Sequence record: SRR31156797_528 | Strand: one strand, 5' to 3' | DNA length: 60,857 nt | Shown here: positions 4,676 to 58,274 of the stretch, one piece after another | How positions within the stretch are numbered: position 1 is the first letter of the stretch | How the letters are laid out: each line of letters starts with the position of its first letter | Program-made: the position numbers and the translations under genes | The notes under the pieces: generated by a model | Database searches by the model: none | Told to the model about the DNA's origin: nothing | What the model saw: the letters and a program-made list of their open reading frames with translations, nothing else

Positions 4676-4907
4676 AAGAATATTTATAATTAAAATTAAA
4701 GATTAGTAAATTTTGATAACTAAGCATTTGAGAAATAAAATTAAGCTACGAAAATTTATGTTAATAATCTTAAAGGAAGAATAGAAAAGAAATTAGTTTA
4801 TACAGATACTCTATTAAATCTCCTAATTATAAAGGGGATATAATGATGATACGAGCATATAATATTGGGTAGAATATATGATAATTCATACTATTTCTGT
4901 AATATAT

Positions 4908-4948
4908 AACCACAGAAGAGCTTTTGTGGTTGAAAAATCTTCTGTGGT
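4908..4948. terminator. Intrinsic terminator hairpin(s) between convergent operons
   Basis: ACCACAGAAGA (4909-4919) pairs with TCTTCTGTGGT (4938-4948) or, alternatively, with CTTTTGTGGTT (4921-4931). Confidence 0.6.
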
Positions 4949-4977
4949 CTTATTTGTTGAAAATCTTACACTTAAAT

Positions 4978-5280
4978 TTATCGGGAGAATGCTTGCTTTT
5001 CATCAAGCAACCCTTTTTCATATGCTTCTCTTAAGAGGTGATATTCATCTCTTCTCCCAAAGTATAAAGCACAGTAATTTCGCTGCACCTGTGTTCCATT
5101 AAAGAGATAATAGGTCATAACATCTATCCCTTCATCCTTCTCAATATGATTTAATGCAAAATCTATAAATTTGGATTCAGCCAGTGTCATTTGCCTGTTT
5201 AAGTCTTTCATAATAATATCTATGGAATCTTTTGTGCTAATCTTAGCAAGATCTACGTAATATTTAATATTTTTTCTTAT
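4978..5280 (-). CDS. Small hypothetical protein (77 aa from ATG 5211; ~100 aa if an ATA start at 5280 is used)
   Basis: The frame stays open upstream to 5286; RBS-like GCAGGTGA precedes the ATA; lies directly downstream of tetR. Confidence 0.65.
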   Translation of the reverse strand: MRKNIKYYVDLAKISTKDSIDIIMKDLNRQMTLAESKFIDFALNHIEKDEGIDVMTYYLFNGTQVQRNYCALYFGRRDEYHLLREAYEKGLLDEKQAFSR

Positions 5281-5282
5281 TT

Positions 5283-5861
5283 TTAATCACCTGCCTTTGT
5301 GAAGATATTGGACAGAAGAAAATCCATATATTCATTTCTAAACGTATCATTATTGAGCATTTTATTTCTGTACTCTACATTGTTCTGAAAATATGAAACA
5401 CCCATATCTATATAATGAAAAATATATGTATTTTCAATATTAGACTTTATCATCCCGTCTTCTTTACCCAAGGCTATTAAATCTAGCAGAATAGTTTCAT
5501 ATAATGTGTTAAATTTATTATATTCATTTTTAAGGTCGCTGTTAAATTTTGCTAAGTCAAAACAAAGAGTTAATCTATTGCTTGCAATAAAATTGCTTAT
5601 GATTTCTATTACATTTGCAACCTTTGCTCTAATCAAAATATTTTCTGATGATTTTTCATTTAGAAGCAATGAGTATTTTTCAAGGATAGATTTACCAACA
5701 TGGAAATATAATTCATCTTTGTCACCAAAGTATTTGTATATAGTGACTTTTGATACGTTAGCTTCCGCTGCAATTTCATCCATAGTAGCCTTCTTAACAC
5801 CGTTTTCAAGGAATAGCTTTATTGATGCATCTAGTATTTTTAATTCTTTTTTGTTCATCAT
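5283..5861 (-). CDS. TetR/AcrR-family transcriptional regulator
   Basis: ILDASIKLFLENG...TMDEIAAEANVSKVTIYKYFGDKDEL HTH; ATGA overlap with the upstream tsf stop. Confidence 0.93.
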   Translation of the reverse strand: MMNKKELKILDASIKLFLENGVKKATMDEIAAEANVSKVTIYKYFGDKDELYFHVGKSILEKYSLLLNEKSSENILIRAKVANVIEIISNFIASNRLTLCFDLAKFNSDLKNEYNKFNTLYETILLDLIALGKEDGMIKSNIENTYIFHYIDMGVSYFQNNVEYRNKMLNNDTFRNEYMDFLLSNIFTKAGD

Positions 5862-6457
5862 TCTTCACCGATTTCATACCTTACGAAACGCTTAATTGTT
5901 ATATTCTCACCGATTCTAGCAATACAATTATCAAGGATATCCTTAACGATGCAATTGGAATCCTTGTAATATTTTTGTTCAAGCAGGCAAGTATTGCTAT
6001 AGAATTTATTGAGTTTACCTTCTATAATTTTATCAATAACATTATTAGGCTTATCTTCTGATTCAAGCTGTTTCCTATAAATATTTCTTTCTTCTTCAAT
6101 GACATTAGCAGAGATGTCATCTCTATTTAGATACATTGGGTTAATAGCAGCAATATGCATTGCAATATCTTTTACAAATGATTTGAAAGTATCTGTACAC
6201 GCAGCAAAATCTGTTTCACAGTAAATTTCTGCTAATACTCCAATCTTTCCGTCTGTATGGATATAAGAACCAACTAAGCCCTCTGATGTAATCCTGGAAG
6301 ACTTCTTTTTTGCTATGACTACACCCTTTTGTCTTAGCAGTTTAGTAGCTTTTTCAGAATCACCGTTAGATTTGAGAAGAGCTTCTTTGCATGCCATGTA
6401 TCCTGCGCCTGTTTGTAAACGTAATTTTTTTATATCGCTTGGATTTATATTATTCAT
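5858..6457 (-). CDS. tsf: Translation elongation factor Ts, short (~199 aa) form, outside the rpsB-tsf-pyrH locus
   Basis: IKKLR.QTGAG.M.CKEAL UBA-like N-terminus, SEGLVGSYIH, CETDF, IAMHIAA, C-terminal IGENI.IKRFVRYEIGE; ATG 6457 after RBS GGGGGT. Confidence 0.93.
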   Translation of the reverse strand: MNNINPSDIKKLRLQTGAGYMACKEALLKSNGDSEKATKLLRQKGVVIAKKKSSRITSEGLVGSYIHTDGKIGVLAEIYCETDFAACTDTFKSFVKDIAMHIAAINPMYLNRDDISANVIEEERNIYRKQLESEDKPNNVIDKIIEGKLNKFYSNTCLLEQKYYKDSNCIVKDILDNCIARIGENITIKRFVRYEIGEE

Positions 6458-6473
6458 ATACGATACCCCCAAA

Positions 6474-6518
6474 ATGTACTATATGTACTAATATAGTACA
6501 TAAATAAATCTATGTCAA
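6474..6518 (-). promoter_or_regulatory. Sigma-A promoter of the tsf-tetR operon overlapped by a palindromic operator
   Basis: Minus-strand TTGACA (6518-6513)-N17-TATATT (6495-6490); perfect IR TATGTACTA-ATA-TAGTACATA (6482-6502) and nested ATGTACTATAT/ATATAGTACAT (6474-6501). Confidence 0.8.
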
Positions 6519-6653
6519 GGTATAAATGAATTATTAAGCTAATATTTAAGATAAACTTAACAAAATTTCTTAAAATGTATTGGTTTATGATAAAATGTTA
6601 TTTGATAGAGTGTTTACTTTATGGTACTAAAATTAGCTATAGAAGGTGAAATT

Positions 6654-7616
6654 TTGGATAAAGCAATAATCAGTGAACTGAAAAAGCTGACAGAAGAAGA
6701 AAAGCAGATACTTAATGGCAAGCATGATATTGATGTTAAGCGTTATATGAGCACAAAATTTTCGAAGGTCATTGACTGCAAAAAATTGATGCAGAGAGGT
6801 GAGCTAATTGCTGTCAGAACTCATACAAGATTTATACATTTTCCAAAACATACACATAACTATGTAGAAGTTATCTATATGCTGGAGGGTGAAACTTGCC
6901 ATATAATTAACGGCGAGAAAGTAATTCTTAATCAGGGTGAATTGCTCTTTCTCAATCAAAATGCAGTGCAGGAGATAGAGAAAGCAGGAGAAAATGATAT
7001 TGCTGTTAACTTCATTATTTTACCTGAATTTTTTGACAGATCACTTACAATGATAGGTGAAGAAGAAAACATGGTAAGAGACTTCATTGTTAGCTGTCTA
7101 AGAAGCGAAAACAGCTCAATGGCATATATGCATTTTAAGGTGGCAGATGTATTACCGGTACAAAACTTAGTTGAAAATCTGATATGGACACTAATAAATA
7201 AAAAAACTAATGAACACAGCATTAATCAAACTACTATGGGTCTGCTGATATTACAGCTTCTAAGTTATGTTGATTTGATGAAAACTGATGATGATAGTTT
7301 GGAAGATGAAATTCTGGTAAAGGTATATCAATTTATTGAGGAAAATTATAGAGATGGTGAATTATCTGATTTGGCTGATAACCTTAATTATAATCTTTAC
7401 TGGTTAAGCCGAATGATTAAGAAACTAACAGGTAAAAATTATACTGAACTGGTACAGAATAAGAGACTAAATCAAGTATCATTTCTTCTAAATAATACTA
7501 CTCTGCCAATTTCTGATATTGGGCATGCAGTTGGATATAGCAATCTAAGCTATTTCTACCGTTTATTCAAGCAGAACTTTGGTATGTCACCAAAAGCCTA
7601 TAGGCATAATAAATAA
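6654..7616 (+). CDS. AraC-family regulator with cupin sensor domain, probable rhamnose operon activator
   Basis: FPKHTHNYVE cupin motif, C-terminal double HTH (VGYSNLSYFYRLFKQNFGMSP); TTG start at 6654 after RBS GAAGGTG. Confidence 0.88.
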   Translation: MDKAIISELKKLTEEEKQILNGKHDIDVKRYMSTKFSKVIDCKKLMQRGELIAVRTHTRFIHFPKHTHNYVEVIYMLEGETCHIINGEKVILNQGELLFLNQNAVQEIEKAGENDIAVNFIILPEFFDRSLTMIGEEENMVRDFIVSCLRSENSSMAYMHFKVADVLPVQNLVENLIWTLINKKTNEHSINQTTMGLLILQLLSYVDLMKTDDDSLEDEILVKVYQFIEENYRDGELSDLADNLNYNLYWLSRMIKKLTGKNYTELVQNKRLNQVSFLLNNTTLPISDIGHAVGYSNLSYFYRLFKQNFGMSPKAYRHNK

Positions 7617-7625
7617 TGTATTAGT

Positions 7626-7660
7626 GCAAATAAGGACACTGTTTTTCGCAAATGATGTCA
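7626..7660 (+). promoter_or_regulatory. Putative AraC tandem binding sites upstream of rhaB
   Basis: GCAAATAAGGACA and GCAAATGATGTCA as direct repeats 22 bp apart. Confidence 0.5.
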
Positions 7661-7712
7661 TTTATTTACTGAAAAAGTCAATGTAGAATATAGAATAGAA
7701 GGAGTAATAGTT

Positions 7713-9122
7713 ATGGGAAAATACTACTTAGCTGTTGACATTGGTGCATCAAGCGGCATCCATATTCTTGGACATGTAAAGGATGGCTGTATCACCTTAG
7801 AGGAAATCTATCGTTTTGAAAATAGTGCAAGACTTGTTGATGGTCAATTGTGCTGGGACTTAGAGAGTTTATTTGATGAAATCAAGGCAGGAATGAAAAA
7901 GTGCAAAGAAATTGGCAAAATACCTGAAAGTATTGGAATAGATACTTGGGCAGTTGATTTCATACTTCTTGATGATGATAATAATATTCTTGGCAATACA
8001 GTTGCATATCGTGATAACAGAACTTATGGTATGGATAAAAAAGTCTATCAAAAAATCAGCGAGACTGAACTATATAGCAGAACTGGTATACAGAAACAAT
8101 TGTTTAATACTATTTATCAATTAATGGCTGTTAAAGAAAAGAAGCCGCAACATATGAGGCAAGCGGTAAGTATGCTCATGATTCCTGATTATTTTCACTT
8201 CTTACTTACTGGGATTAAGAAAAACGAATATACAAATGCAACAACGACTCAGCTAGTCAGTCCTGTATCAAAAGATTGGGATACTGAGCTTATTGAAATG
8301 CTAGGCTACAATAAGAAGATATTTAATGAAATTGTACTGCCGGGTAGTGTTCTTGGGAATCTAAGAAAAGATATTGCAGAGGAAGTTGGTTACGAATGCA
8401 GAGTTGTCCTGCCTCCTACACATGATACTGCTTCAGCTGTCATTGCTGTACCTGCAAAGGGTGAGAATGCAGTATATATTAGTTCAGGTACTTGGTCACT
8501 AATGGGAATTGAACGGATGGAAGCAGACTGCAGTGAAAGGAGTGCTGAGCTAAATTTCACCAACGAAGGCGGTTATGAATATCGCTTCAGATATTTGAAA
8601 AATATAATGGGGCTTTGGATGATACAATCTGTGAAAAAGGAATTGGATAACAAGTATTCCTTTAGTGAGATATGTGAACTTGCATCAGCGGAAAACATTA
8701 AGTCAATTATTGACTGTAATAACCAACGGTACATTGCTCCAAAGAGCATGATTGAACAAGTAAAAGCTGAGTGCAGAGAGTCTAACCAGCAAATCCCTGA
8801 AACCATAGGCGAAGTAGCTGCTGTAATATATAGGTCTCTGGCATACTGCTACAGTAATACGGTAAAGGAAATTGAGGAAATGACTTCAACTAACTTTGAT
8901 AGTATCCATATTGTGGGCGGTGGCTCTAATGCCGATTATTTGAATCAGCTGACTGCTGATTTTACTGGCAAGCGGGTTCTGGCTGGTCCTACGGAAGCAA
9001 CAGCAATAGGCAACTTGGAAGCTCAAATGATATCAGATGGTGAATTTAATAGCTTAGATGAAGCAAGACAATGTATAACAAAATCTTTTGAAATTAAAGA
9101 ATATACCAAGGAGGAAGCATAA
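7713..9122 (+). CDS. rhaB: Rhamnulokinase
   Basis: LAVDIGASSG, IGIDTWAVD, YRDNRT, THDTASA, ISSGTWSLMG, NEGG, NIMGLW, GGG..A, GPTEATAIGN; adjacent to rhaA. Confidence 0.93.
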   Translation: MGKYYLAVDIGASSGIHILGHVKDGCITLEEIYRFENSARLVDGQLCWDLESLFDEIKAGMKKCKEIGKIPESIGIDTWAVDFILLDDDNNILGNTVAYRDNRTYGMDKKVYQKISETELYSRTGIQKQLFNTIYQLMAVKEKKPQHMRQAVSMLMIPDYFHFLLTGIKKNEYTNATTTQLVSPVSKDWDTELIEMLGYNKKIFNEIVLPGSVLGNLRKDIAEEVGYECRVVLPPTHDTASAVIAVPAKGENAVYISSGTWSLMGIERMEADCSERSAELNFTNEGGYEYRFRYLKNIMGLWMIQSVKKELDNKYSFSEICELASAENIKSIIDCNNQRYIAPKSMIEQVKAECRESNQQIPETIGEVAAVIYRSLAYCYSNTVKEIEEMTSTNFDSIHIVGGGSNADYLNQLTADFTGKRVLAGPTEATAIGNLEAQMISDGEFNSLDEARQCITKSFEIKEYTKEEA

Positions 9123-10372
9123 TGAAAATAAATGAACGATACCTATCTGCTAAGGAAATTTACGGAAAAATTGAGGTTGATACAGATAAAGCGATTGAAA
9201 GCCTGATGAATATACCGATATCTCTTCACTGCTGGCAGGGGGATGATGTTACTGGTTTTGAAGGAGATATAAATCTTTCTGGAGGTATTCAGGCTACTGG
9301 TAACTATCCGGGAAAGGCAAGAAACCCAGAAGAATTAATGGCTGATCTTGATAAAGCCCTAAGTTTAATTCCAGGAAATCATAGGATAAATTTGCACGCT
9401 AACTATGCAATATTTGAAAATGATGATAGGGCAGACAGAAATAAATTAGAGCCAAAGCATTTTAAAAAATGGGTTGAATTTGCTAAGGAAAGGGATTTGG
9501 GTCTTGATTTTAATCCAACATATTTTTCACATCCTAAAGCATCATATGCTACATTATCCAGCGAAGATGAGGATATCAGAGAATTCTGGATAGAACATGG
9601 CAAATGCTGCCTAAAAATTTCCGAATATTTTGCAATTGAACTTGGTACGCCTTGTACAATGAATATCTGGATACCTGATGGTTTCAAAGACATACCAGCT
9701 GACAGAAAAGGACCAAGAGAAAGATTAAAGGATTCATTGGACCAAATAATATCTACTGAATATGACAAGAGTAAGGTCAATATTGCTGTAGAATCCAAAG
9801 TATTTGGTATTGGCTTGGAATCATACACAGTAGGATCACATGAATTCTATATGAATTACGCTGCAAAGAACGATTTGCTTTGTCTACTTGATAATGGGCA
9901 TTATCACCCTACAGAATCAGTTGCAGATAAGATATCATCTATGCTGTTGTTTTCAGAAAAGGTTGCCCTTCATGTCACTCGTCCTGTCAGGTGGGATAGT
10001 GATCATGTGGTTTTGTACAATGATGAAACCAAAGAAATTGCCAAGGAAATAATTAAAAATGGTTCTGAACGTGTAATACTAGCTCTAGATTATTTTGATG
10101 CAAGCATTAATCGGATTTCAGCATGGGTTGTAGGAATGAGGAATATGCAGAAAGCACTGCTTAACGCATTGCTATTACCTATGGATAAATTAGGTGAATT
10201 ACAGGACAAAAGACAGCTTACTGAATTAATGGTCATGCAGGAAGAGTTGAAATTATATCCAGTTGGCGATGTGTGGAATTATTTTTGTTCTAAGCATGGT
10301 TTGCCAGCTAATGAAAATTGGTTTGAAGAGATTAAGACATATGAAAAGGATGTTTTGATAAAGAGAGTTTAA
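9122..10372 (+). CDS. rhaA: L-rhamnose isomerase
   Basis: SLHCWQGDDV, GGIQATGNYPGKA, ESKVFGIGLESYTVGSHEFY, DNGHYHPTE, RPVRWDSDHV, LDYFDASINR. Confidence 0.97.
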   Translation: MKINERYLSAKEIYGKIEVDTDKAIESLMNIPISLHCWQGDDVTGFEGDINLSGGIQATGNYPGKARNPEELMADLDKALSLIPGNHRINLHANYAIFENDDRADRNKLEPKHFKKWVEFAKERDLGLDFNPTYFSHPKASYATLSSEDEDIREFWIEHGKCCLKISEYFAIELGTPCTMNIWIPDGFKDIPADRKGPRERLKDSLDQIISTEYDKSKVNIAVESKVFGIGLESYTVGSHEFYMNYAAKNDLLCLLDNGHYHPTESVADKISSMLLFSEKVALHVTRPVRWDSDHVVLYNDETKEIAKEIIKNGSERVILALDYFDASINRISAWVVGMRNMQKALLNALLLPMDKLGELQDKRQLTELMVMQEELKLYPVGDVWNYFCSKHGLPANENWFEEIKTYEKDVLIKRV

Positions 10373-10441
10373 TTGGCATTTACCTGATAAGACTGGTTAA
10401 ATAAAAAACTTAAAATAGGAGATAATAGGAGATAAATAATA

Positions 10442-11458
10442 ATGCAAGAGATACAGGGGCTAATAAAAATTTCACATTATGCAGCTGACAACAAAGGATA
10501 TATACAAGGCGGCGGAGGCAACACATCAGTAAAGATTGATGACAAGCAAATGGCTGTTAAAGCATCAGGATGCAAGTTGTCTGACATGAGTGACAATGAA
10601 GGGTATGTAGTTGTAGATTACAAGAGTATTAAAGAATACTTTATAGATGCAGATGAAAATGATGATAAATTCGACGAGGAAAGCTCAGCAGTCCTAAAAT
10701 CAGCTGTTATTCTAAAAGAAGGTTTAAAGAAGCTAAGACCATCTGTAGAAGCAGGCTTCCATTCTGCACTAAAGAAATACGTAATCCACACCCATTCTGT
10801 TTATACCAATATTTTATGTTGCAGTGAAAACGGGAAAGCAAAAGTTGAAGAAATATTCAATGATGTTTCTTTCTTATGGATTTCTTATGTAGATCCAGGT
10901 GCTAAATTAACTGTTGCTATTACTCAAGAAATTAAGAAATTGAATACAATTCCAGATGTAATATTTATGGAAAATCATGGAGTGATTGTTTCCGCTGATA
11001 CTAGTGACGAAGCAATAGATCTTCATGATAAAGTTAATAACAGTGTTAGAGAATATTTTGGCTTGACAGAAGCATTTCCAGAGGTTTTATTGGAGATTGA
11101 TAACAGCGGATTAATAAAAAGCGCATCGCCATATGTAAAGTCTTTCTTTAATGAGAATCCAAAGGACTTAAGCATACTAAAGGAAAAGGTGCTGTATCCT
11201 GATCAATTGGTTTATCTGAACAATTCAATATATAAGAAAGATGGTTCATCATCAGATATTTATTTTGATGGTGATGACCTATGCTATAATATAAGTGAAA
11301 AGCAGGCTATGGTAAATGAGGAAACATTAGTGGCGTATTTGTATGTTATTAATACGATAAAGAAGCTAGGATTAGATCTGGTTACAATGACATACAAACA
11401 GCAGGCATTTATTCTAGGCTGGGAAAGCGAAGCATATAGGAAAAGTATGCTGAAGTAA
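10442..11458 (+). CDS. Class II aldolase/adducin-family protein, probable rhamnulose-1-phosphate aldolase (RhaEW-type aldolase domain only)
   Basis: GGGGNTSVK, KASG, PSVE..FH, IHTH, MENHG Zn motifs; third gene of the rha operon. Confidence 0.75.
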   Translation: MQEIQGLIKISHYAADNKGYIQGGGGNTSVKIDDKQMAVKASGCKLSDMSDNEGYVVVDYKSIKEYFIDADENDDKFDEESSAVLKSAVILKEGLKKLRPSVEAGFHSALKKYVIHTHSVYTNILCCSENGKAKVEEIFNDVSFLWISYVDPGAKLTVAITQEIKKLNTIPDVIFMENHGVIVSADTSDEAIDLHDKVNNSVREYFGLTEAFPEVLLEIDNSGLIKSASPYVKSFFNENPKDLSILKEKVLYPDQLVYLNNSIYKKDGSSSDIYFDGDDLCYNISEKQAMVNEETLVAYLYVINTIKKLGLDLVTMTYKQQAFILGWESEAYRKSMLK

Positions 11459-18956: not shown

Positions 18957-20402
18957 ATGACAAAAAGAATATTGATCTTTATGCTAATTATGATCATGAC
19001 AGTGTCATTAGTAGCTGGCTGTGCTAAAACATCTGTTGAAGATGAGTCTGCAGAAGCAACTGCTGAAGAAGTAACTGAAGAAGCAACTGATGAAGCTTCA
19101 GAAGAAGCAGAAGAGCTTACACCTGTTACTTTAGAAGTTGTTGCTTCTCAACCTGAGTATGCTGCACAAGAACAGGAAATCTGGAACATTTATATGGAGG
19201 AAAATCCACATGTAACAATTGAATTGATTTCAGTTAACGAAGATACTTCTGCTGCATTCAATACTCGTATTGCTAGTGGTGATGCACCTGATATTCAATG
19301 TTACGTAGGCGTTGACAAAGCTAATTACGAAACTTATCAAAACTTAGCAGATATCGATTACCCATACTGGGATCTAATTCAATATGATGCACAAAATGTT
19401 TATTCTGAATCTAACGGAACAGAAGAAGGCTATGTACCTGTATTATATCCATTCTCTGGTACTACTTTCAGCTGGATTTATCATGAAGACGAGATGGAAA
19501 AAGCTGGTCTAAGTCCACGTGAAACTGTACGTACTATGGAAGATTTCGATGCATTCTTAGCTGAGCTAAAAGTATATGTTGACTCAAATGATGATATTAA
19601 ATATACTTTAGATATGGGCTGGCATTCATGGTGTATTTTCTCACAAGAAATTGATGAACTAGCTGTTGCTATGGGATCAAATCAAGATGAACTAAAAGAA
19701 CTATGGATTAACCGTACAATTGCATGGAATGATGTAGAAAACAATCCATATGCTCCTGCTTTTGAAAAGCTGAAAGAATGGTACGACTTAGGTTATCTGC
19801 CTGAAAAATGGTGGACACGTAACTGGGAAACAGACTTCGAAGCTGGATTCACAGCTAAGAACTCTATCCTATGTTTCCACGGACCATGGTTATGGACAAA
19901 AGTAGAAACTGCTGATCCAGATGCACAATTAGGCGGATTCCCAATGCCTGCTAATGAAGATGGTATCATCCAAAATGGTGCTGTTGAGCCAGGTAAAGGT
20001 ACTGTACTATTTGAATGCAATAAAGACGGCGAAAACCAAGAAGAAGCTGTAAAAGCATTTATCTGGTGGAACAGTCCAGAAGTTATCAAAATGCGCGCTG
20101 AAGCATTCGGTTCAGTTCCTCTGATGGATTTATCATCTGTTGGTCAAGCTGAATTGGCTTCATCACAATACAATGAAGTTATAGGACCTATCCAAGAAGG
20201 TTACTTCGGTGACGTTACATTTGACTCATCACTATGGGCAAGTACACTAGTGGCTAAGTACAAGACTAAAGATTCACAAGATGTTCTTGCTGCTGACGAT
20301 ATGGCTGTACAATATGGTGCTTATTTCGAAGGCGAAATGTCACTAGAAGAGTTGCTGCAAATACTGCAAGATCGTTATGATGCAGCTTATTCTTTTGAAT
20401 AA
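18957..20402 (+). CDS. Carbohydrate ABC transporter solute-binding lipoprotein
   Basis: Lipobox VAGC, acidic linker, family-1 SBP size, HGPW motif; followed by two permeases. Confidence 0.9.
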   Translation: MTKRILIFMLIMIMTVSLVAGCAKTSVEDESAEATAEEVTEEATDEASEEAEELTPVTLEVVASQPEYAAQEQEIWNIYMEENPHVTIELISVNEDTSAAFNTRIASGDAPDIQCYVGVDKANYETYQNLADIDYPYWDLIQYDAQNVYSESNGTEEGYVPVLYPFSGTTFSWIYHEDEMEKAGLSPRETVRTMEDFDAFLAELKVYVDSNDDIKYTLDMGWHSWCIFSQEIDELAVAMGSNQDELKELWINRTIAWNDVENNPYAPAFEKLKEWYDLGYLPEKWWTRNWETDFEAGFTAKNSILCFHGPWLWTKVETADPDAQLGGFPMPANEDGIIQNGAVEPGKGTVLFECNKDGENQEEAVKAFIWWNSPEVIKMRAEAFGSVPLMDLSSVGQAELASSQYNEVIGPIQEGYFGDVTFDSSLWASTLVAKYKTKDSQDVLAADDMAVQYGAYFEGEMSLEELLQILQDRYDAAYSFE

Positions 20403-30563: not shown

Positions 30564-32321
30564 TTAGTCCAGATTTTCTTTTGTTTCTATATGTAGCTTT
30601 TGCTCACGAACAGGTGATTTATCCAGTACACGGCGGTTGCTATACAGAGGATAGTATGTACCTTGTGGTGAAATACCTACTACATCGTCTCCGACCCATT
30701 TTGTGATATATGTCAGTCCAGCAGCTAATTCTGTAGTTGTACGTTCTATCATTGGGAAGGTTATTGTTATTTTTTCATTCGGCATTGCACCTCTTAGCAG
30801 TATAAAGCAATCTTTGACCCAAGGGACATCTCTGCCTGATAATTCAATAGTTTCACCATTTGTGTTTCTAAGAATTTTAACACCACCGAAAGGAGTCCAT
30901 TCAGGAATTCTTACTAAAAGCTCGGGTATCTCCTTATTGATGTGAAGCTCTATTTTTCCTTCGTGAGGCATATAGCTTAGTAAATTCAAATCCTCGGTTG
31001 CTTTATTAATCAGCATATTTACGCTAACTCTACCATTAGCTGTCTTAGTAATAATATTAGTCCAGCCATTGTATAGTCCACGTGTACCGGAGGCTACACA
31101 GCATGTCTGTACATCCATAATGTGGCCACGTCCGTATGTACCGCTGTAGACAAAATCATTAGGAGCAGAATATCCGGCAAAAGTACCACGCAGTCTCTCT
31201 GCAACCTTATAATAGGTTTTTTCCTTTGGAATATCCATAGATTTATCTTCTCTTTGCTTAATCCAGCTGGTATCTAGTATCTGAGCTTCTGTCAGATGGT
31301 TCCTTAGGAACCTTTCGGCAACACCCCAGTATGAAGTATGTCCTTTTTTCGCCAGAGTAATCGCGATATTGATTGCATCTACCAAAGTACATGTTTCGTG
31401 TTCATACTCTTGGTCTTCCAGGTCACCGGGAGTCCAGCCAAAGCTGGTGCATTTGGTAAGTGCCCAGTCGAAGCTCTTTTTGACATAAGATATTATAGAG
31501 GAATCATCTGTAACATCTGCAAAGCGAGCTAAAGCATAGAGCGTACCCATGCGTGTATGAAAATGTCCATTTCTAAATATCAGACCATCATTGAAGCTGC
31601 CATCAGGCAGGAATACTCCGCTTCTGTTTATGATATTTGAAACAAAATTCTCTGACAATTCATATGCATCCATATTACCTGTATGCTCATAATAGCGGAT
31701 TAAAGGCATTACCTGTCGTCCCCACATTGCTGCTGGGTCATAGGCTAGGCGAGTATGCACAGCGTCAAATGAAGGCCAGCCGTTTTGTGTATATTCGGAT
31801 GCTGGATAGTACCAGGATGTTCTTTCTTTGCGTGCAATCCTTTTTAATGCAGCTACGTGATTATCAGCATATTCTTTGATTTTCTCGTCTTTTGTATCTA
31901 CAAACCATGTTGTAAGTCCCAAAATTACAGAACGCTGGTCAATCATACTGGCACTCTCTTGGAATGGAGCTTGATACTCAAGAGGTGTTGCTTCATCGAA
32001 GGTATTTCTTCTATAGCTTAGACCATTAGGTCTGAAGAATTTCAGTAGATTTTCTCTGTAGTGCTGCTCGATATCCTCGCCGTATTTGCTGTTTGACATT
32101 CTTCTGGCTAATATTATACAGTCAACCAGACGACCGTGGCTTGAACCATAGTCCCAGTTACCGTGGCTCATCCATGCAGGGTCAGACTGAAAGAAACCGC
32201 TGAAGTACGGAATATATTCATAATCCTCATCTGCTACATTAATCATTGCATTTAATGCTATCTCTGCACGTTCCTCTAGGTTCAGCGTGTCAGGCATTTT
32301 GATTTTTATTTCTTGACTCAA
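30564..32321 (-). CDS. Divergent GH127/GH146-like cysteine glycosidase (putative)
   Basis: EHETC and TCCVASG match the Zn/Cys ligands of HypBA1-type enzymes; GHFH, ERFLRNHL, LLVRIPEW; TTG start after AAAGGAG. Confidence 0.6.
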   Translation of the reverse strand: MSQEIKIKMPDTLNLEERAEIALNAMINVADEDYEYIPYFSGFFQSDPAWMSHGNWDYGSSHGRLVDCIILARRMSNSKYGEDIEQHYRENLLKFFRPNGLSYRRNTFDEATPLEYQAPFQESASMIDQRSVILGLTTWFVDTKDEKIKEYADNHVAALKRIARKERTSWYYPASEYTQNGWPSFDAVHTRLAYDPAAMWGRQVMPLIRYYEHTGNMDAYELSENFVSNIINRSGVFLPDGSFNDGLIFRNGHFHTRMGTLYALARFADVTDDSSIISYVKKSFDWALTKCTSFGWTPGDLEDQEYEHETCTLVDAINIAITLAKKGHTSYWGVAERFLRNHLTEAQILDTSWIKQREDKSMDIPKEKTYYKVAERLRGTFAGYSAPNDFVYSGTYGRGHIMDVQTCCVASGTRGLYNGWTNIITKTANGRVSVNMLINKATEDLNLLSYMPHEGKIELHINKEIPELLVRIPEWTPFGGVKILRNTNGETIELSGRDVPWVKDCFILLRGAMPNEKITITFPMIERTTTELAAGLTYITKWVGDDVVGISPQGTYYPLYSNRRVLDKSPVREQKLHIETKENLD

Positions 32322-52837: not shown

Positions 52838-53335
52838 ATGCAAGAAGCCCAACAACACAACTGCCATGAACTAGATAACGAAGAACAATACAGATTGTTG
52901 AAGGACGTTATTTCTCAGTTTGATGGCGATGAAAAAAATCTTATTCAGATTCTGCACATGGCACAGGCTATTTTTGGTTGTCTGCCGCTGGATGTGCAGA
53001 AATTCATTGCACAGGAAATGAATATCCCGTTGTCAAGAGTAAGCGGGGTAATCACTTTTTACTCATTCTTTTCAACACAGCCCAAAGGCAAACATACAAT
53101 TCAGATATGTCTTGGTACAGCTTGCTATGTTCGAGGCGGCAAGAAGATTGTTGATAAACTCAAAGAACTCCTAAACGTAGATGTCGGATTAACAACTGAA
53201 GATGGTAAATTCTCTTTGGAAGTAATGAGATGTATCGGAGCTTGCGGGTTAGCACCGGCAATATGTATTGACGATACTGTTTACAAGAGAGTAAATCCCA
53301 ACAAGATTAAAGACATCTTAGAAAAATATGAGTAG
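52838..53335 (+). CDS. hydC: [FeFe]-hydrogenase gamma subunit (NuoE-like, [2Fe-2S])
   Basis: LIQILHMAQ, VITFYSFF, CLGTACYVRG, CIGACGLAP; ATG 52838 after GGAGG. Confidence 0.9.
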   Translation: MQEAQQHNCHELDNEEQYRLLKDVISQFDGDEKNLIQILHMAQAIFGCLPLDVQKFIAQEMNIPLSRVSGVITFYSFFSTQPKGKHTIQICLGTACYVRGGKKIVDKLKELLNVDVGLTTEDGKFSLEVMRCIGACGLAPAICIDDTVYKRVNPNKIKDILEKYE

Positions 53336-56300
53336 GGAGGTAATAATGGATAAAGTTATAAAAAATATAGAAGATTTGAAGAATATAAAATCAGATTTTA
53401 TTAATTCAGAGAAAGATTATGACAAAAGCGTACTTGTTTGCTATGGGGCCAGTTGTATTTCTTCAGACTGTAAAGAAGTAAAAGAGGCACTGGAATTAAG
53501 CATAAAGGAAAATGGCATAGAAGAAAAAATCAGAGTAAAGCTAACAGGCTGTATGGGAACTTGCGCTGTAGGACCAACTATGATAATACAGCCGGAAGGC
53601 GTATTTTACTGCTCTCTTACACCAGAGAAAGTTGATAAAATTGTAAAAGATCACCTGATTGGCGGCGAGATTGTAGAAGAATTCTGCTATGTGGATAAAA
53701 ATACTAATGAAACAGTCCCATATGTAAAAGACATAGAGTACTTCAAGAGACAATTAAAGATAGTTATGAAGAATTGCGGCTCAATAGATTTCAGCTCTTT
53801 AGATGAATATATTGCAAATGATGGATATCTTGCTCTAAACAAAGTCATAAACGAGCAAAGTCCTGAGGAAGTAATTGATATTATTAAGAAATCAGGCTTA
53901 AGAGGCAGAGGCGGCGGCGGATTTCCAACAGGATTGAAGTGGGCATTAGCCCGCAAAACACCAACCGATGAAAAATATATTATATGTAACGCTGACGAAG
54001 GCGACCCTGGTGCATTTATGGATAGATGTCTGGTGGAAGGTGATGCTTACTTAGTTATTGAGGGAATGACAATTGCGGGATATGCGGTAGGTGCAGGTAA
54101 AGGCGTTGTTTACGTTCGTGCAGAGTACCCTGTTGCAATAGAAAGACTTAATGCAGCTATAAAAAATGCGAGAGAAACAGGATTATTAGGAAAAGATATA
54201 TTAGGTTCAGGTTTTGAATTTGATATTGAAATAAGAATTGGTGCAGGCGCATTTGTATGCGGTGAAGAAACAGCTTTGATTTCATCGATAGAAGGAAAAA
54301 GAGGAGAACCAAAACAAAAGCCTCCTTATCCATCAGATAAAGGATTGTACGGTAAACCTTCTATTATCAATAATGTTGAAACTTTCGGAAACATTGCAAC
54401 TATTATCCTAAAAGGTGCTGACTGGTTTAGAGGCATCGGTACGGAAAAAAGCCCAGGAACAAAGGTATTTGCATTAGCAGGTGATATTAACAATACTGGT
54501 ATTATTGAAGTGCCTATGGGTACTACATTAGGTGAGATTATTTTTGATATCGGTGGTGGAATACCTAATGAAAAGAAATTCAAAGTAGCTCAGACAGGAG
54601 GGCCTTCAGGAGGCTGTCTGACATCGGAGCACTTAAATGCTAAGGCTGATTATGATTCACTAGTTGAACTAGGTGCTATCATGGGTTCAGGCGGACTTAT
54701 CTGTATGGATGAAGATACATGTATGGTGGATGTTGCAAGGTATTTCATGGAATTTGTTCAGGAAGAATCCTGCGGTAAATGTGTAGCCTGCAGACTGGGC
54801 ACAAAGCGTATGCTGGAAATATTAGAAAATATAACACAAGGTAAAGGCAAGGAAGGCGATGTAGAGCTTTTGGTTGAGTTAGGATTAACCATCAAGGATA
54901 CAGCTCTTTGCGGTTTAGGACAGACAGCTCCGAATCCTGTTTTATCTACAATTAAATATTTCCGAGATGAATATGATGAACATATAAGGAACAAAAAATG
55001 CAGAGCTGGTGTCTGCGGAGATATGTTCATTTCCCCATGTGAAAATGCATGTCCTGCTGGTGTAAATGTACCCGGATATGTTGCCCTTATTGCTGCTGGC
55101 AGAGCAAAAGATGCTTATAGGTTGATTCGTCAGGAGAATCCTTTCCCATCTGTGTGTGGTAGGGTATGCACACATCCATGCGAGTCAAGGTGCAGGCGTG
55201 CACAGCTTGACGATCCAATTGCAATTGCAGATTTGAAGCGTTACGCAGCTGATGAAATGATGAAATCAGACGAACCATTCTCAGAATTAATTTTCCCCAA
55301 AAACAATAAATCAATTGGTATAGTTGGTGCAGGCCCTTCAGGATTAACATGCGGTTATTATCTGGCAAAGCTAGGTTATGATGTAACAGTTTATGAAGAA
55401 CAGCCAACCCCAGGCGGTATGCTGGCTGTAGGTATTCCTGAATACCGTATGCCCAAGGAAATTTTACAAAAAGAGATTAATACCATACGTCAGGTGGGTG
55501 TGAATATTCTCTGCGATACAAAAGTAGGCGAAGATATTACTTTTGAAGAATTAAAAGAAAAGCACAATGCAGTATACATTGCTACTGGTACTCAACACTC
55601 CAGAAAGATTGGTATTGAGGGTGAAGACCTAGAGGGTGTTTACCACGGACTTGATTTCCTAAAAGATGTTAACCTTAATAAAATCGACAAGATTGACGGA
55701 GTGACGGCAGTAATCGGGGGAGGTAATACAGCTATTGATGCAGCAAGAACTGCTAGGAGAATGGGGGCGAAAGAGGTTCACATCTTCTACCGGAGAGCAA
55801 TATCAGATATGCCTGCTGACAAGCGTGAAATACGTGATGCCATTGAAGAGGGTATTGTGATTCATGAAATGATGGCACCGGTAAAAATGGCTGGAGATGA
55901 TAAAGTTACTGGTATCACATTCCAGCAAATGAAATTTGAAGGTTTTGACAGAAGCGGTCGTAAAGTGCCAAAAGTCATTGAAAACAGAGAGTTCACGTTC
56001 AATGCAGACTTGATAATCCCAGCTGTGAGTCAATATTCAGATTTACCATTTGTAAGCAAAGATGAAGTTGAAGTAACAAAGTGGGGCACATTCGTAATCG
56101 ACTCTGATACTATGATGACTACTATGTCCAGCGTCTTCGCAGGCGGAGATGTAGTAAGGGGTGCAGATGTCGTTATTACAGCTATTGCTGACGGTAAAAA
56201 TGCAGCACGTTACATAGACCTGTATTTAGGCGGAAAAGGTGAACTGAATAAAGGTGAAAAGATTGACATACCAGTGCCTATGGATGATGATGAACTTGTA

Positions 56301-56438
56301 GAGCATGATCGGTTTGAGATGAAATATCTTGACCCTGAATACAGGAAGAATAATTGTGAGGAAGTTGCTCTTGGTTTCCACAAGCTAAACGCTGTAGCGG
56401 AAGCAATGCGCTGTCTCAGATGCGACAGAAGGCAGTAA
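53328..56438 (+). CDS. hydB: [FeFe]-hydrogenase beta subunit (NuoF-like) fused to a GltD/NfnB-like FAD/NADPH oxidoreductase module
   Basis: N-terminal thioredoxin-like 2Fe domain, GLRGRGGGGFPTG, NADEGDPGAFMDR, GGPSGG, ESCGKCVACR; then PCENACP, CGRVCTHPCE..C, VGAGPSG, IGGGNTA, YRR, FAGGD, RCLRC. Confidence 0.9.
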   Translation: MSREVIMDKVIKNIEDLKNIKSDFINSEKDYDKSVLVCYGASCISSDCKEVKEALELSIKENGIEEKIRVKLTGCMGTCAVGPTMIIQPEGVFYCSLTPEKVDKIVKDHLIGGEIVEEFCYVDKNTNETVPYVKDIEYFKRQLKIVMKNCGSIDFSSLDEYIANDGYLALNKVINEQSPEEVIDIIKKSGLRGRGGGGFPTGLKWALARKTPTDEKYIICNADEGDPGAFMDRCLVEGDAYLVIEGMTIAGYAVGAGKGVVYVRAEYPVAIERLNAAIKNARETGLLGKDILGSGFEFDIEIRIGAGAFVCGEETALISSIEGKRGEPKQKPPYPSDKGLYGKPSIINNVETFGNIATIILKGADWFRGIGTEKSPGTKVFALAGDINNTGIIEVPMGTTLGEIIFDIGGGIPNEKKFKVAQTGGPSGGCLTSEHLNAKADYDSLVELGAIMGSGGLICMDEDTCMVDVARYFMEFVQEESCGKCVACRLGTKRMLEILENITQGKGKEGDVELLVELGLTIKDTALCGLGQTAPNPVLSTIKYFRDEYDEHIRNKKCRAGVCGDMFISPCENACPAGVNVPGYVALIAAGRAKDAYRLIRQENPFPSVCGRVCTHPCESRCRRAQLDDPIAIADLKRYAADEMMKSDEPFSELIFPKNNKSIGIVGAGPSGLTCGYYLAKLGYDVTVYEEQPTPGGMLAVGIPEYRMPKEILQKEINTIRQVGVNILCDTKVGEDITFEELKEKHNAVYIATGTQHSRKIGIEGEDLEGVYHGLDFLKDVNLNKIDKIDGVTAVIGGGNTAIDAARTARRMGAKEVHIFYRRAISDMPADKREIRDAIEEGIVIHEMMAPVKMAGDDKVTGITFQQMKFEGFDRSGRKVPKVIENREFTFNADLIIPAVSQYSDLPFVSKDEVEVTKWGTFVIDSDTMMTTMSSVFAGGDVVRGADVVITAIADGKNAARYIDLYLGGKGELNKGEKIDIPVPMDDDELVEHDRFEMKYLDPEYRKNNCEEVALGFHKLNAVAEAMRCLRCDRRQ

Positions 56439-56450
56439 GGGGGATTAAAT

Positions 56451-58274
56451 ATGATTAACTTAAAAATTAATGGTAAAGACATACAAGCCAAAGAGGGTAC
56501 AACAATCCTTAAGGCAGCAAAGGATAGTAATATTACAATACCCAGCCTTTGTCATCTGGAGAATATACATGAATTTGGATCCTGCAGAATATGCGTAGTA
56601 GAAGTAGAGGGTGCGAAAGCACTACAGGCTTCATGCGTAACTCCAGTCTCTGAAGGCATGGTAGTTCATACAAATTCGGCAAGGGTGAGAAACAGACGAA
56701 AAGTACTATATGAATTAATATTATCTGATCATCCAAAGGACTGCCTAAGCTGCGGACGAAACGGAGAATGTGAGCTGCAGGAATTGGGAGAAACTATTAT
56801 GGTAGATAAGACCAGATTTGATGGAGAGAAATCTAAATTCAAAGCTGATGAATCAAGCCCGTCTATAGTACGTGATGCTTCAAAATGTATCCTATGCAGA
56901 AGATGTGTTACAATTTGTAATGAGGTGCAGGGATTAGGGATTCTGAATGCTCAGTCAAGAGGTTTTGCTACTGAAATAGGTCCTGGAAATGATTCTTTGC
57001 TTGGTACTGTTTCCTGCTCAAACTGTGGTCAGTGTACTGTAGTATGCCCTGTTAATGCATTGCATGAGAAGGATTCTCTGGAAGAAGTATGGCAGGCATT
57101 AGCAGATGATTCCAAAATTGTTGTAGTACAGACTGCTCCAGCTATTCGTGCTGCACTAGGTGAAGAATTTGGGTATCCTATTGGCACTTCAGTTACAGGT
57201 AAGATGGTTTCAGCTCTTCGTCAGATTGGATTTGATCATGTTTTTGACACGAATTTCACCGCAGATTTAACCATTATGGAAGAAGGAACTGAATTCCTAT
57301 CAAGGATAGTCAGTTATTTCTATTCTTTGGGTAAAATAACGGATGAGCAGGTGGAAGCTCTGGGAATGAAGGAGCATATCAAAGAGCCTGTTTTGCCTAT
57401 GATTACGTCTTGCAGTCCTGGTTGGATAAAATTTATTGAACACTATTATAGTGACAATTTGGGTAATTTATCAACATGTAAATCTCCTCATACTATGCTA
57501 GGAGCTTTGGTTAAGTCTTTCTTTGCAAAGAAAATTGGTGCTAAACCAGAGGATATGTATGTAGTATCGATTATGCCTTGTACTGCAAAGAAATTCGAGA
57601 TTACACGTCCTGAAATGCAGAATGATGATGCAATGAATGTTGATGCAGTATTGACAACTCGTGAGCTTGGTCGAATGATAAAGCAGGCAGGTATAGATTT
57701 TACTAGTCTTGATGATGACAAATTTGATTCACCAATGGGATTGTCTACAGGTGCTGCAGATATATTTGGTACAACCGGTGGTGTAATGGAAGCTGCATTA
57801 AGAACTGTATACGAAATCATCACAGGTCGTGAACTGCCATTTGAGCAATTGCATGTAACTCCAATAGTTGGTCTGGAGAAGATAAAGACTGCTGCAATAA
57901 CATTTCAAGATGTATTGCCTGCATGGTCATTCTTAAATGATGTAGAGGTAAAGGTAGCTGTAACATCAGGTTTAAGCGGTGCAGCGACATTACTTGATGA
58001 GGTGAAAGACGGAGAAAGTCCATATCTGTTTATAGAAGTTATGGGTTGCCCAGGTGGTTGTATAACAGGAGGAGGACAGCCTAGAAGTGATGATGTAGAG
58101 GTGCGTAGAAAAAGAATGGAATCTTTGTATGCAGAGGATGAGGGTAAGCCTTTACGTAAGAGTCACAATAACCCTGATATTGAAAAACTCTATAAGGAAT
58201 TCTTGGGTAAACCTTTAGGTCATATATCTCATGAACTGCTGCACACTCATTATACCAGAAGAGATAAATATTAA
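56451..58274 (+). CDS. hydA: [FeFe]-hydrogenase catalytic subunit (group A, M3 architecture)
   Basis: N-terminal 2Fe-2S, His-ligated and 2x4Fe-4S motifs; H-cluster motifs TSCSPGW, MPCTAKKFE, EVMGCPGGCITGGGQP; C-terminal ELLHTHY. Confidence 0.95.
   Translation: MINLKINGKDIQAKEGTTILKAAKDSNITIPSLCHLENIHEFGSCRICVVEVEGAKALQASCVTPVSEGMVVHTNSARVRNRRKVLYELILSDHPKDCLSCGRNGECELQELGETIMVDKTRFDGEKSKFKADESSPSIVRDASKCILCRRCVTICNEVQGLGILNAQSRGFATEIGPGNDSLLGTVSCSNCGQCTVVCPVNALHEKDSLEEVWQALADDSKIVVVQTAPAIRAALGEEFGYPIGTSVTGKMVSALRQIGFDHVFDTNFTADLTIMEEGTEFLSRIVSYFYSLGKITDEQVEALGMKEHIKEPVLPMITSCSPGWIKFIEHYYSDNLGNLSTCKSPHTMLGALVKSFFAKKIGAKPEDMYVVSIMPCTAKKFEITRPEMQNDDAMNVDAVLTTRELGRMIKQAGIDFTSLDDDKFDSPMGLSTGAADIFGTTGGVMEAALRTVYEIITGRELPFEQLHVTPIVGLEKIKTAAITFQDVLPAWSFLNDVEVKVAVTSGLSGAATLLDEVKDGESPYLFIEVMGCPGGCITGGGQPRSDDVEVRRKRMESLYAEDEGKPLRKSHNNPDIEKLYKEFLGKPLGHISHELLHTHYTRRDKY

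Follow-up and report, generated by a model that had tools for sequence, protein, structure and literature searches.

SRR31156797_528 is a stretch of DNA of 60,857 nt, given as one strand and referred to here as the window. The feature under study (4904-6518, minus strand) comprises a gene for elongation factor Ts (EF-Ts, tsf), a gene for a TetR-family repressor and a gene for a small HEAT-like protein (Table 1). On balance, the tsf gene appears from sequence comparisons to encode an inducible accessory EF-Ts and not the housekeeping copy. Promoter and operator, tsf, tetR and the small HEAT-like gene, in this order, are predicted to form a three-gene self-repressed operon.

Results and discussion

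A predicted operon of tsf, tetR and a small gene

It is supported that the three genes are one operon, transcribed from a promoter whose -10 hexamer lies under an operator-like palindrome. The first-pass annotation, made from the letters alone, had described a unit of tsf, tetR and a gene for a small protein, with promoter, palindrome and terminator, and every element was found again in its place on the minus strand. The ATGA coupling of tsf and tetR that it had noted is an overlap of the tsf TGA with the tetR ATG. A second tetR ATG three bases further fits the MNKK start of homologues and still overlaps the tsf stop by one base. The terminator is a hairpin (4953-4904) followed by a U/A-rich tail, and none of 200 shuffles was equally good; a simple terminator scan overlooked it because its loop is long.

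The same annotation had called tsf an orphan, which holds for the window. RpsB from a canonical rpsB-tsf locus (L002) gave zero tblastn matches in the 60 kb, and the sole tblastn match of EF-Ts was the tsf at 6457..5858 itself. A housekeeping tsf lies directly downstream of rpsB; the neighbours of this one are sugar and methyltransferase genes. RpsB was also searched for on the contig of L007, the metagenome locus described below that carries tsf, and was absent.

The tsf promoter (TTGACA-17-TATATT, 6518-6490) is the best in the region, with 11 of 12 matches; promoter-like sites as a class are not above chance in this AT-rich DNA (10 found vs 13.6 in shuffles). Two perfect inverted repeats overlap each other here, one at 6474-6484/6491-6501 (11-nt arms, 6 nt between) and one at 6482-6490/6494-6502 (9-nt arms, 3 nt between). 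The inner repeat (6482-6502) is specific to the window locus. The motif TGTACTA-N12-TAGTACA occurs once in the window vs 0.04 times expected. The ATG of tsf (6457) follows 17 bases past the repeats and is preceded by GGGGG.

TTGAC-N14-TGTACTA-N12-TAGTACA could be aligned without any gap in all seven loci compared (the window and six metagenome loci, L004-L009), and the TGTACTA half-site overlaps the start of the -10 hexamer across the alignment. The loci range from organisms of 28-40% GC up to L007, whose flanking DNA is GC-rich. The alignment is, judged by its conserved positions, a phylogenetic footprint of a putative operator over the -10 hexamer and start site. A promoter with its -10 hexamer under a perfect palindrome had been part of the first description; it is confirmed, and the palindrome is kept in 7/7 loci. 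Since the putative operator lies upstream of tsf in both tsf-bearing loci (the window and L007), tsf would be inside the repressed unit.

Table 1. Features of the predicted tsf-tetR operon (positions in the window)
Feature	Position	Strand	Remarks
-35 hexamer TTGACA	6513..6518	-	11/12 matches together with -10; TTGAC invariant in 7/7 aligned loci
-10 hexamer TATATT	6490..6495	-	17 nt from -35; TATATT, TATAAT, TATTAT or TAAAAT at the same position in the other six loci
Putative TetR operator TGTACTA-N12-TAGTACA	6475..6500	.	spans -10 and likely transcription start; half-sites kept in 7/7 loci
tsf (probable paralogue), 199-aa short (Thermus-type) EF-Ts	5858..6457	-	TIGR00116, PF00889, 1aip_C alignment
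TetR-family repressor gene, 192 aa	5283..5861	-	PF00440; start overlaps tsf stop (ATGA)
Small HEAT-like protein 'orfX'	4978..5280	-	77 aa from ATG 5211; ~100 aa if ATA 5280 is the start
Terminator-like hairpin, then UUAUAUAUU	4904..4953	-	-19.3 kcal/mol, z -4.18

The repressor family and its cargoes

The repressor matches PF00440 with 58.9 bits (cut-off 24, E 4.2e-16) and belongs to a distinct family of its own, of 64 proteins at E ≤ 2.2e-33 that are 38-61% identical. No NCBIfam equivalog reached its cut-off with it, the plasmid collection held no match above about 33% identity, and the viral contigs held no relative of TetR or of the small protein. Its nearest solved relatives are FadR types (fatty-acid regulators; E 2.3e-15), with weak scores.

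When metagenomes were scanned with the TetR alignment, 80 loci were retained, six of which (L004-L009) have full-length family members, and tblastn of the three window proteins was run against all 83 loci. The small open reading frame (ORF) lies 3' of tetR in five of the six (L004, L005, L006, L007 and L009) and is more conserved than the repressor (64-77% identity vs 41-52% for TetR). Of the six, only the GC-rich metagenome contig L007 has an EF-Ts gene immediately before tetR, and there the tsf stop and the tetR start are two bases apart: TGAGCATG. The best EF-Ts match (P0006, 60% identity) and a close TetR relative (P0244, 55%) are encoded on Logan contigs of 1971 bp from the same source; very probably these two genes are neighbours on one contig and make a third case of tsf beside tetR. 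The survey of neighbourhoods that the first-pass annotation had called for thus shows that tsf-tetR-small ORF is not a one-off: it recurs in L007 and, very probably, on the P0006/P0244 contig.

Within this one TetR family tsf is patchy. It is present in the window and L007 and absent from L004, L005, L006, L008 and L009. In the TetR tree the presumably tsf-linked P0244 and the tsf-less L004 are members of one clade of four rows (support 98), and L007 is in the other main clade. The conserved core would thus be promoter/operator, tetR and small ORF, with tsf as optional cargo between operator and tetR. That tetR and the small protein are the core, and that the domain of the latter is common to immune-type effectors, had been missed on first reading.

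Three sister operons carry a gene for a metal-dependent amidohydrolase downstream instead of tsf (L006, 5938-7155; L008, 5575-6918; L009, 5880-6326). The enzyme is weakly Xaa-Pro dipeptidase- or imidazolonepropionase-like, and in L009 its gene is seemingly truncated beside a recombinase-like gene. By gene order, the predicted module has interchangeable cargoes, of which tsf is one and the amidohydrolase another.

The EF-Ts protein

The window protein was described at first as a full short-form EF-Ts, and this is what its 199 aa proved to be. It scores 199.1 bits with TIGR00116 (cut-off 104.05) and 142.9 bits with PF00889 (cut-off 27); PF25025 stays under its cut-off (23.2 vs 33.2 bits). Thermus EF-Ts (1aip_C, 196 aa) aligns end to end, residues 9-197 of the window protein with 7-195 (E 2.4e-53). 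The TGAG motif of the N-terminal, EF-Tu-binding (UBA-like) domain is present and aligned. ETDF, with the Asp-Phe wedge TDF (D80/F81 in Escherichia coli), is kept in all three TetR-linked EF-Ts.

For comparison, 92 short EF-Ts were used, 27 long forms and P0006 having been left out of the 120 best matches. Sixty-nine columns are at least 90% conserved in this set, and 65 of them are kept by the window protein (four departures), 63 by P0006 and 49 by L007 (20 departures). Three residues set the TetR-linked EF-Ts apart, each being found in all three of them. Y20, in the TGAG(Y)M motif, occurs in 0/92 others, which have M, L, I, V or F there; A85, directly after the TDF wedge, occurs in 2/92 (90/92 have V); and C178 occurs in none of the other 92 short forms. 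The exchange machinery of the window EF-Ts thus looks intact as far as its conserved positions tell. Its best identity among 7959 significant matches is 60%, and it is 55-60% identical to many. The codon bias of tsf is middling (effective number of codons 46.3, rank 20 of 43 genes), which is weak evidence, the comparison having been made without a ribosomal-protein reference set.

Is the window tsf an accessory copy?

The EF-Ts of the window and that of L007 were placed in a tree with the 120 best matches. The window protein and P0006 pair with a support of 99, on a long stem. Branches of the three TetR-linked EF-Ts are 0.24, 0.44 and 1.19, plus a stem of 0.35, against a median end branch of 0.021 that is deflated by near-identical rows. 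The branch of L007 is very long and its composition is deviant. When the three were constrained to one clade the log-likelihood was 23.6 above that of the free quick tree (p-AU, from the approximately unbiased test, 0.74). A single origin of the three is compatible with the data and would even be preferred, with the caveat of long-branch attraction.

Identity between the window and L007 is 41% for EF-Ts, 41% for TetR and 64% for the small protein. EF-Ts is thus as diverged as its repressor while the small protein is kept, which is unlike a housekeeping factor. An inducible accessory paralogue had been the proposal of the first-pass annotation. Its accessory part is favoured by the patchy occurrence of tsf, the shared derived residues, the long branches, the absence of rpsB from the window and L007 and the lack of codon bias, and the phylogeny that it had suggested as a check gave the well-supported pair and the constrained three-member clade described above; inducibility would follow from the predicted operator.

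Several points weigh against this, in addition to the deflated median. The clade of three may partly reflect long-branch attraction, given the deviant composition of L007. The tsf-bearing examples total three, one of them presumed, and the linkage of P0006 to P0244 comes only from their equal size of 1971 bp and common source. The count of one tsf is that of the 60-kb window alone. Nor is the 60% ceiling of EF-Ts identity by itself a sign of fast evolution, because the organism is remote from the databases: the adjacent rhamnulokinase reaches only 72%. The named near matches of that enzyme are Epulopiscium-like, Lachnospiraceae/Lachnospirales and Clostridium, and the source is likely to be a saccharolytic, gut-type anaerobe of the class Clostridia with no close sequenced relatives. 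In favour of an accessory copy, the window EF-Ts is placed differently from the rhamnulokinase, among short forms of which the few with names come from Nitrospirae metagenome-assembled genomes.

A search of genome contigs with EF-Ts found only one distant gammaproteobacterial housekeeping locus (35% identity), which was used as the canonical rpsB-tsf control. In the plasmid collection there were 61 records with EF-Ts matches, all below 60% identity and all mislabelled chromosomes or chromids.

The small HEAT-like protein

The small ORF encodes 77 aa from the ATG at 5211, and its relatives have 101-107 aa. Because the 23 codons upstream of this ATG are homologous to the N-termini of the relatives (the frame is open back to 5286), the true product is likely to be about 100 aa. 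This bears out the size first given for it, though no ATG, GTG or TTG start for a product of this length was found in the upstream stretch of the window. An ATA at 5280 sits 6 nt past AGGTGA. The related L004 (5572-5650) is likewise without a canonical start there; in other members of the family an ATG stands at the corresponding position. Translation may begin at ATA (window, 5280) or ATT (L004, 5581) behind a Shine-Dalgarno sequence, or by re-initiation after the tetR stop.

No Pfam family matched the small protein, with only single weak matches at E up to 1; HEAT_2 (E 0.0095) and HEAT_PBS (E 0.029) were each matched by one of 36 members. An AlphaFold model (predicted local distance difference test 95.5) has seven helices in an alpha-alpha repeat. 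Its best fold matches are HEAT-like repeats, in the generic range of scores (Foldseek E 0.26; Z 6.7 to AlkD2), and structure look-up in the ESM Atlas gave only 'hypothetical protein' clusters.

The full HMMER search returned 103 cluster representatives: 41 stand-alone (91-140 aa), 18 shorter and 44 longer. Fusions were scanned in 43 of the longer ones, a 5937-aa protein being left out. In these the domain is at the C-terminus, behind TIR_2 (11), alpha/beta hydrolase (4), MarR (4), SEFIR (3), protein kinase (3), KAP NTPase (2), TetR (2), acetyltransferase (1), caspase (1) and others. Fused relatives include P0313, P0315, P0258, P0320, P0327, P0355, P0388 and P0338, and one fused member also matches GUN4_N (ARM-like; E 4.6e-06). 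Defence models of PADLOC are matched by the partners of the TIR, KAP, kinase and caspase types (ThsB/PDC-S66, QatA/PifA, PD-T4-6 and caspase). Among the window proteins, PADLOC gave none for EF-Ts and TetR and one stray match for the small ORF (E 0.00099, 0 stretches).

The TetR parts of P0258, P0313 and P0315 belong to the same family as the window TetR, so repressor and small protein are linked by gene fusion. In the predicted fold of P0258, a natural fusion of the two, both domains are confident; no docking can be read from it because of its overall score (predicted template modelling score 0.69) and soft linker. The ~100-aa HEAT-like domain is new and unnamed, and the pattern of its fusions makes it a candidate for a shared sensor or adaptor.

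Proposed mechanism

A TetR dimer, or a pair of dimers, would sit on the 26-bp palindrome TGTACTA-N12-TAGTACA over the -10 hexamer and start site and hold the three genes low, as the conserved operator architecture suggests. Some signal would then free the repressor, either a small molecule in the C-terminal pocket of TetR or a relay through the HEAT-like partner. The latter is a candidate relay, being fused to the same TetR family in some bacteria. Once released, the operon would yield an EF-Ts of the Thermus type, with its TGAG N-domain and TDF wedge intact and with the signature Y20, A85 and C178, which is presumably active. This extra exchange factor may act on EF-Tu so that, in the inducing condition, GDP/GTP exchange and the turnover of ternary complexes are faster or otherwise changed.

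Other explanations

The window tsf could be the organism's only tsf, a housekeeping copy that came to lie in a TetR operon in which repression is weak or constitutively relieved. An intact protein near the short EF-Ts consensus (4 of 69 conserved columns differ; 55-60% identity to many) and the single tsf seen, within the 60-kb window, are what such a relocation would give. It is nevertheless unlikely: operator, tsf, tetR and small ORF have the same order in a GC-rich organism that is very distantly related, tsf is missing from sister operons with a repressor of this family, and an essential gene behind an operator over its only strong promoter would be unusual. The shared derived signature and long branches of the linked copies and the absence of codon bias in tsf also speak against it. 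In quite another direction, the paralogue might have given up exchange as its main activity for a structural or regulatory part, such as binding to TetR and the HEAT-like protein or titration of EF-Tu. EF-Ts is a structural subunit elsewhere (Q-beta replicase entries were among the structure matches), it evolves here as fast as the regulator (41% vs 41%), and the L007 copy departs at 20 of 69 conserved columns. However, few conserved columns, and neither TGAG nor TDF, are altered in the copies of the window and P0006, and most operons of this TetR family function without tsf, which makes such a role very improbable.

The remaining explanations concern the signal to which an accessory EF-Ts would respond. 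TetR regulators commonly sense xenobiotics, and this one might sense an EF-Tu-directed antibiotic (of the elfamycin or thiopeptide type) or a toxin, the extra EF-Ts protecting or recycling EF-Tu. The variant residue A85 adjoins the TDF wedge, and the one sign of a chemical trigger is the amidohydrolase cargo of L006, L008 and L009, an enzyme that could serve to detoxify a compound. Against these stand the annotated ORFs of the 60-kb window, among which there is no efflux pump, resistant EF-Tu or biosynthetic cluster; the best solved relatives of TetR, which are fatty-acid FadR types (at only E 2e-15); and a literature search that gave no description of drug protection mediated by EF-Ts. Protection from antibiotics is therefore doubtful. 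Alternatively the operon responds to phage or toxin attack, with the HEAT-like protein as a sensor or adaptor common to immune effectors and EF-Ts as a substitute or decoy for a hijacked or damaged EF-Tu/EF-Ts pair. More broadly stated, TetR and the HEAT-like protein would be a widespread sensing module with the same domain as TIR, caspase, KAP NTPase and kinase immune proteins. Where its output is the variant EF-Ts, as in some lineages, the module would serve bacterial immunity or toxin defence by transcription and without cell suicide, rewiring the EF-Tu cycle once translation factors come under attack or are hijacked. The C-terminal fusions to TIR_2 (11/43), SEFIR (3), protein kinase (3), KAP NTPase (2) and caspase (1), partners that match PADLOC models, point this way, as do those to TetR (2) and MarR (4) regulators. 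However, hydrolases and an acetyltransferase are also among the fusion partners of the domain, no window protein matches a PADLOC model meaningfully, TetR and the small protein have no relatives in viral contigs, and the window holds no defence island; a role in defence, in the narrow or the broad form, is thus distinctly unlikely.

Surroundings of the operon

The operon is flanked on one side by a divergent AraC/rhamnose operon and on the other by genes for two methyltransferases, a LysR regulator and metE. The rhamnose catabolic set (6621-11458) is complete and divergent from the tsf promoter, with genes for a RhaS-like AraC regulator, rhamnulokinase, L-rhamnose isomerase and a class II aldolase. 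The 163-bp intergenic region between this set and tsf holds both promoters. From 11568 to 51008 the window is dense with genes for glycoside hydrolases (GH43, GH31, GH95, GH63-like, GH42, GH2, two GH106-like and a GH29 fucosidase), and GDSL esterases, an ABC sugar transporter and two transaldolase-like genes are also encoded there. This looks like a region for the utilisation of plant or host glycans. Two ORFs (18957-20402 and 30564-32321) gave no Pfam match at E 1e-5, and a two-component system is encoded elsewhere in the window. At 53328-58274 a gene for a 1036-aa protein, in which a NuoF-like, a 2Fe-2S thioredoxin-like and a pyridine-nucleotide-disulphide oxidoreductase domain are fused, adjoins that for the large subunit of an FeFe hydrogenase; this may be a variant of electron-bifurcating hydrogenase.

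Rfam and tRNA scans of the window gave nothing. An exact look-up in a collection of 15 billion proteins found none of the window's proteins, and the sequencing runs listed for the stretch comprise one DNA run (X1) and no RNA run.

Significance and comparison with known systems

The usual view of EF-Ts is that of a housekeeping factor with one gene copy, linked to rpsB. Both the EF-Ts and the TetR family are known; an accessory EF-Ts under a TetR switch is probably of a kind not yet described, and a full-text literature search, with subscription journals outside its coverage, brought up nothing on a tsf paralogue that is inducible or linked to TetR. If there is indeed a conserved, repressor-gated second EF-Ts, bacteria would adjust the EF-Tu cycle as needed. 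Operator and TetR would then offer a way to the natural signal, which might be a compound or an attack aimed at EF-Tu. The unnamed, confidently folded ~100-aa HEAT-like domain, which ties TetR/MarR regulators to TIR, caspase, KAP and kinase proteins, is an independent second point of interest.

The small protein resembles HEAT-like repeats (alphaRep, AlkD2, YibA) in its seven-helix alpha-alpha repeat and its best fold matches. The effector-associated adaptor domains described by Kaur et al. 2020 (PMC7159879) occur on TIR, caspase, kinase and NTPase proteins, and the small domain is like them in its occurrence on such proteins. Unlike the adaptor domains described, it is found at C-termini and also on TetR/MarR regulators, and its fold scores are generic.

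EF-Ts of Thermus thermophilus (PDB 1AIP, 1TFE) is of the same short length class as the window protein, aligns with it end to end and has TGAG and TDF in common with it. Thermus EF-Ts is a homodimer. The window gene differs from that of Thermus in its position, which is not beside rpsB and is behind a putative TetR-type operator, and in Y20, A85 and C178, which 90 to 92 of the 92 ordinary short forms lack. The canonical rpsB-tsf(-pyrH-frr) operon, under autogenous control by ribosomal protein S2, encodes the same protein family, and in L002 rpsB lies directly upstream of tsf. In contrast, the window locus has no rpsB in 60 kb and is predicted to be controlled by a TetR-type operator.

Alternative translation factors linked to antibiotics include the kirromycin-insensitive EF-Tu3 of Streptomyces, FusB-type proteins and ribosome-protection proteins, which target EF-Tu, EF-G or the ribosome or take their place. 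Like them, the window tsf lies outside the housekeeping operon and would supply a further copy, or a partner, of a core translation factor; none of them is known to be an EF-Ts or to lie within a module of TetR and a HEAT-like protein. The predicted control of the window tsf resembles that of autoregulated TetR operons (TetR/tetO), which likewise have a helix-turn-helix domain (PF00440), a palindrome over the promoter and the repressor gene inside the regulated unit. Unlike TetR/tetO, its cargo is a translation factor and not a pump or enzyme, and it has a dedicated HEAT-like partner gene that is sometimes fused to TetR.

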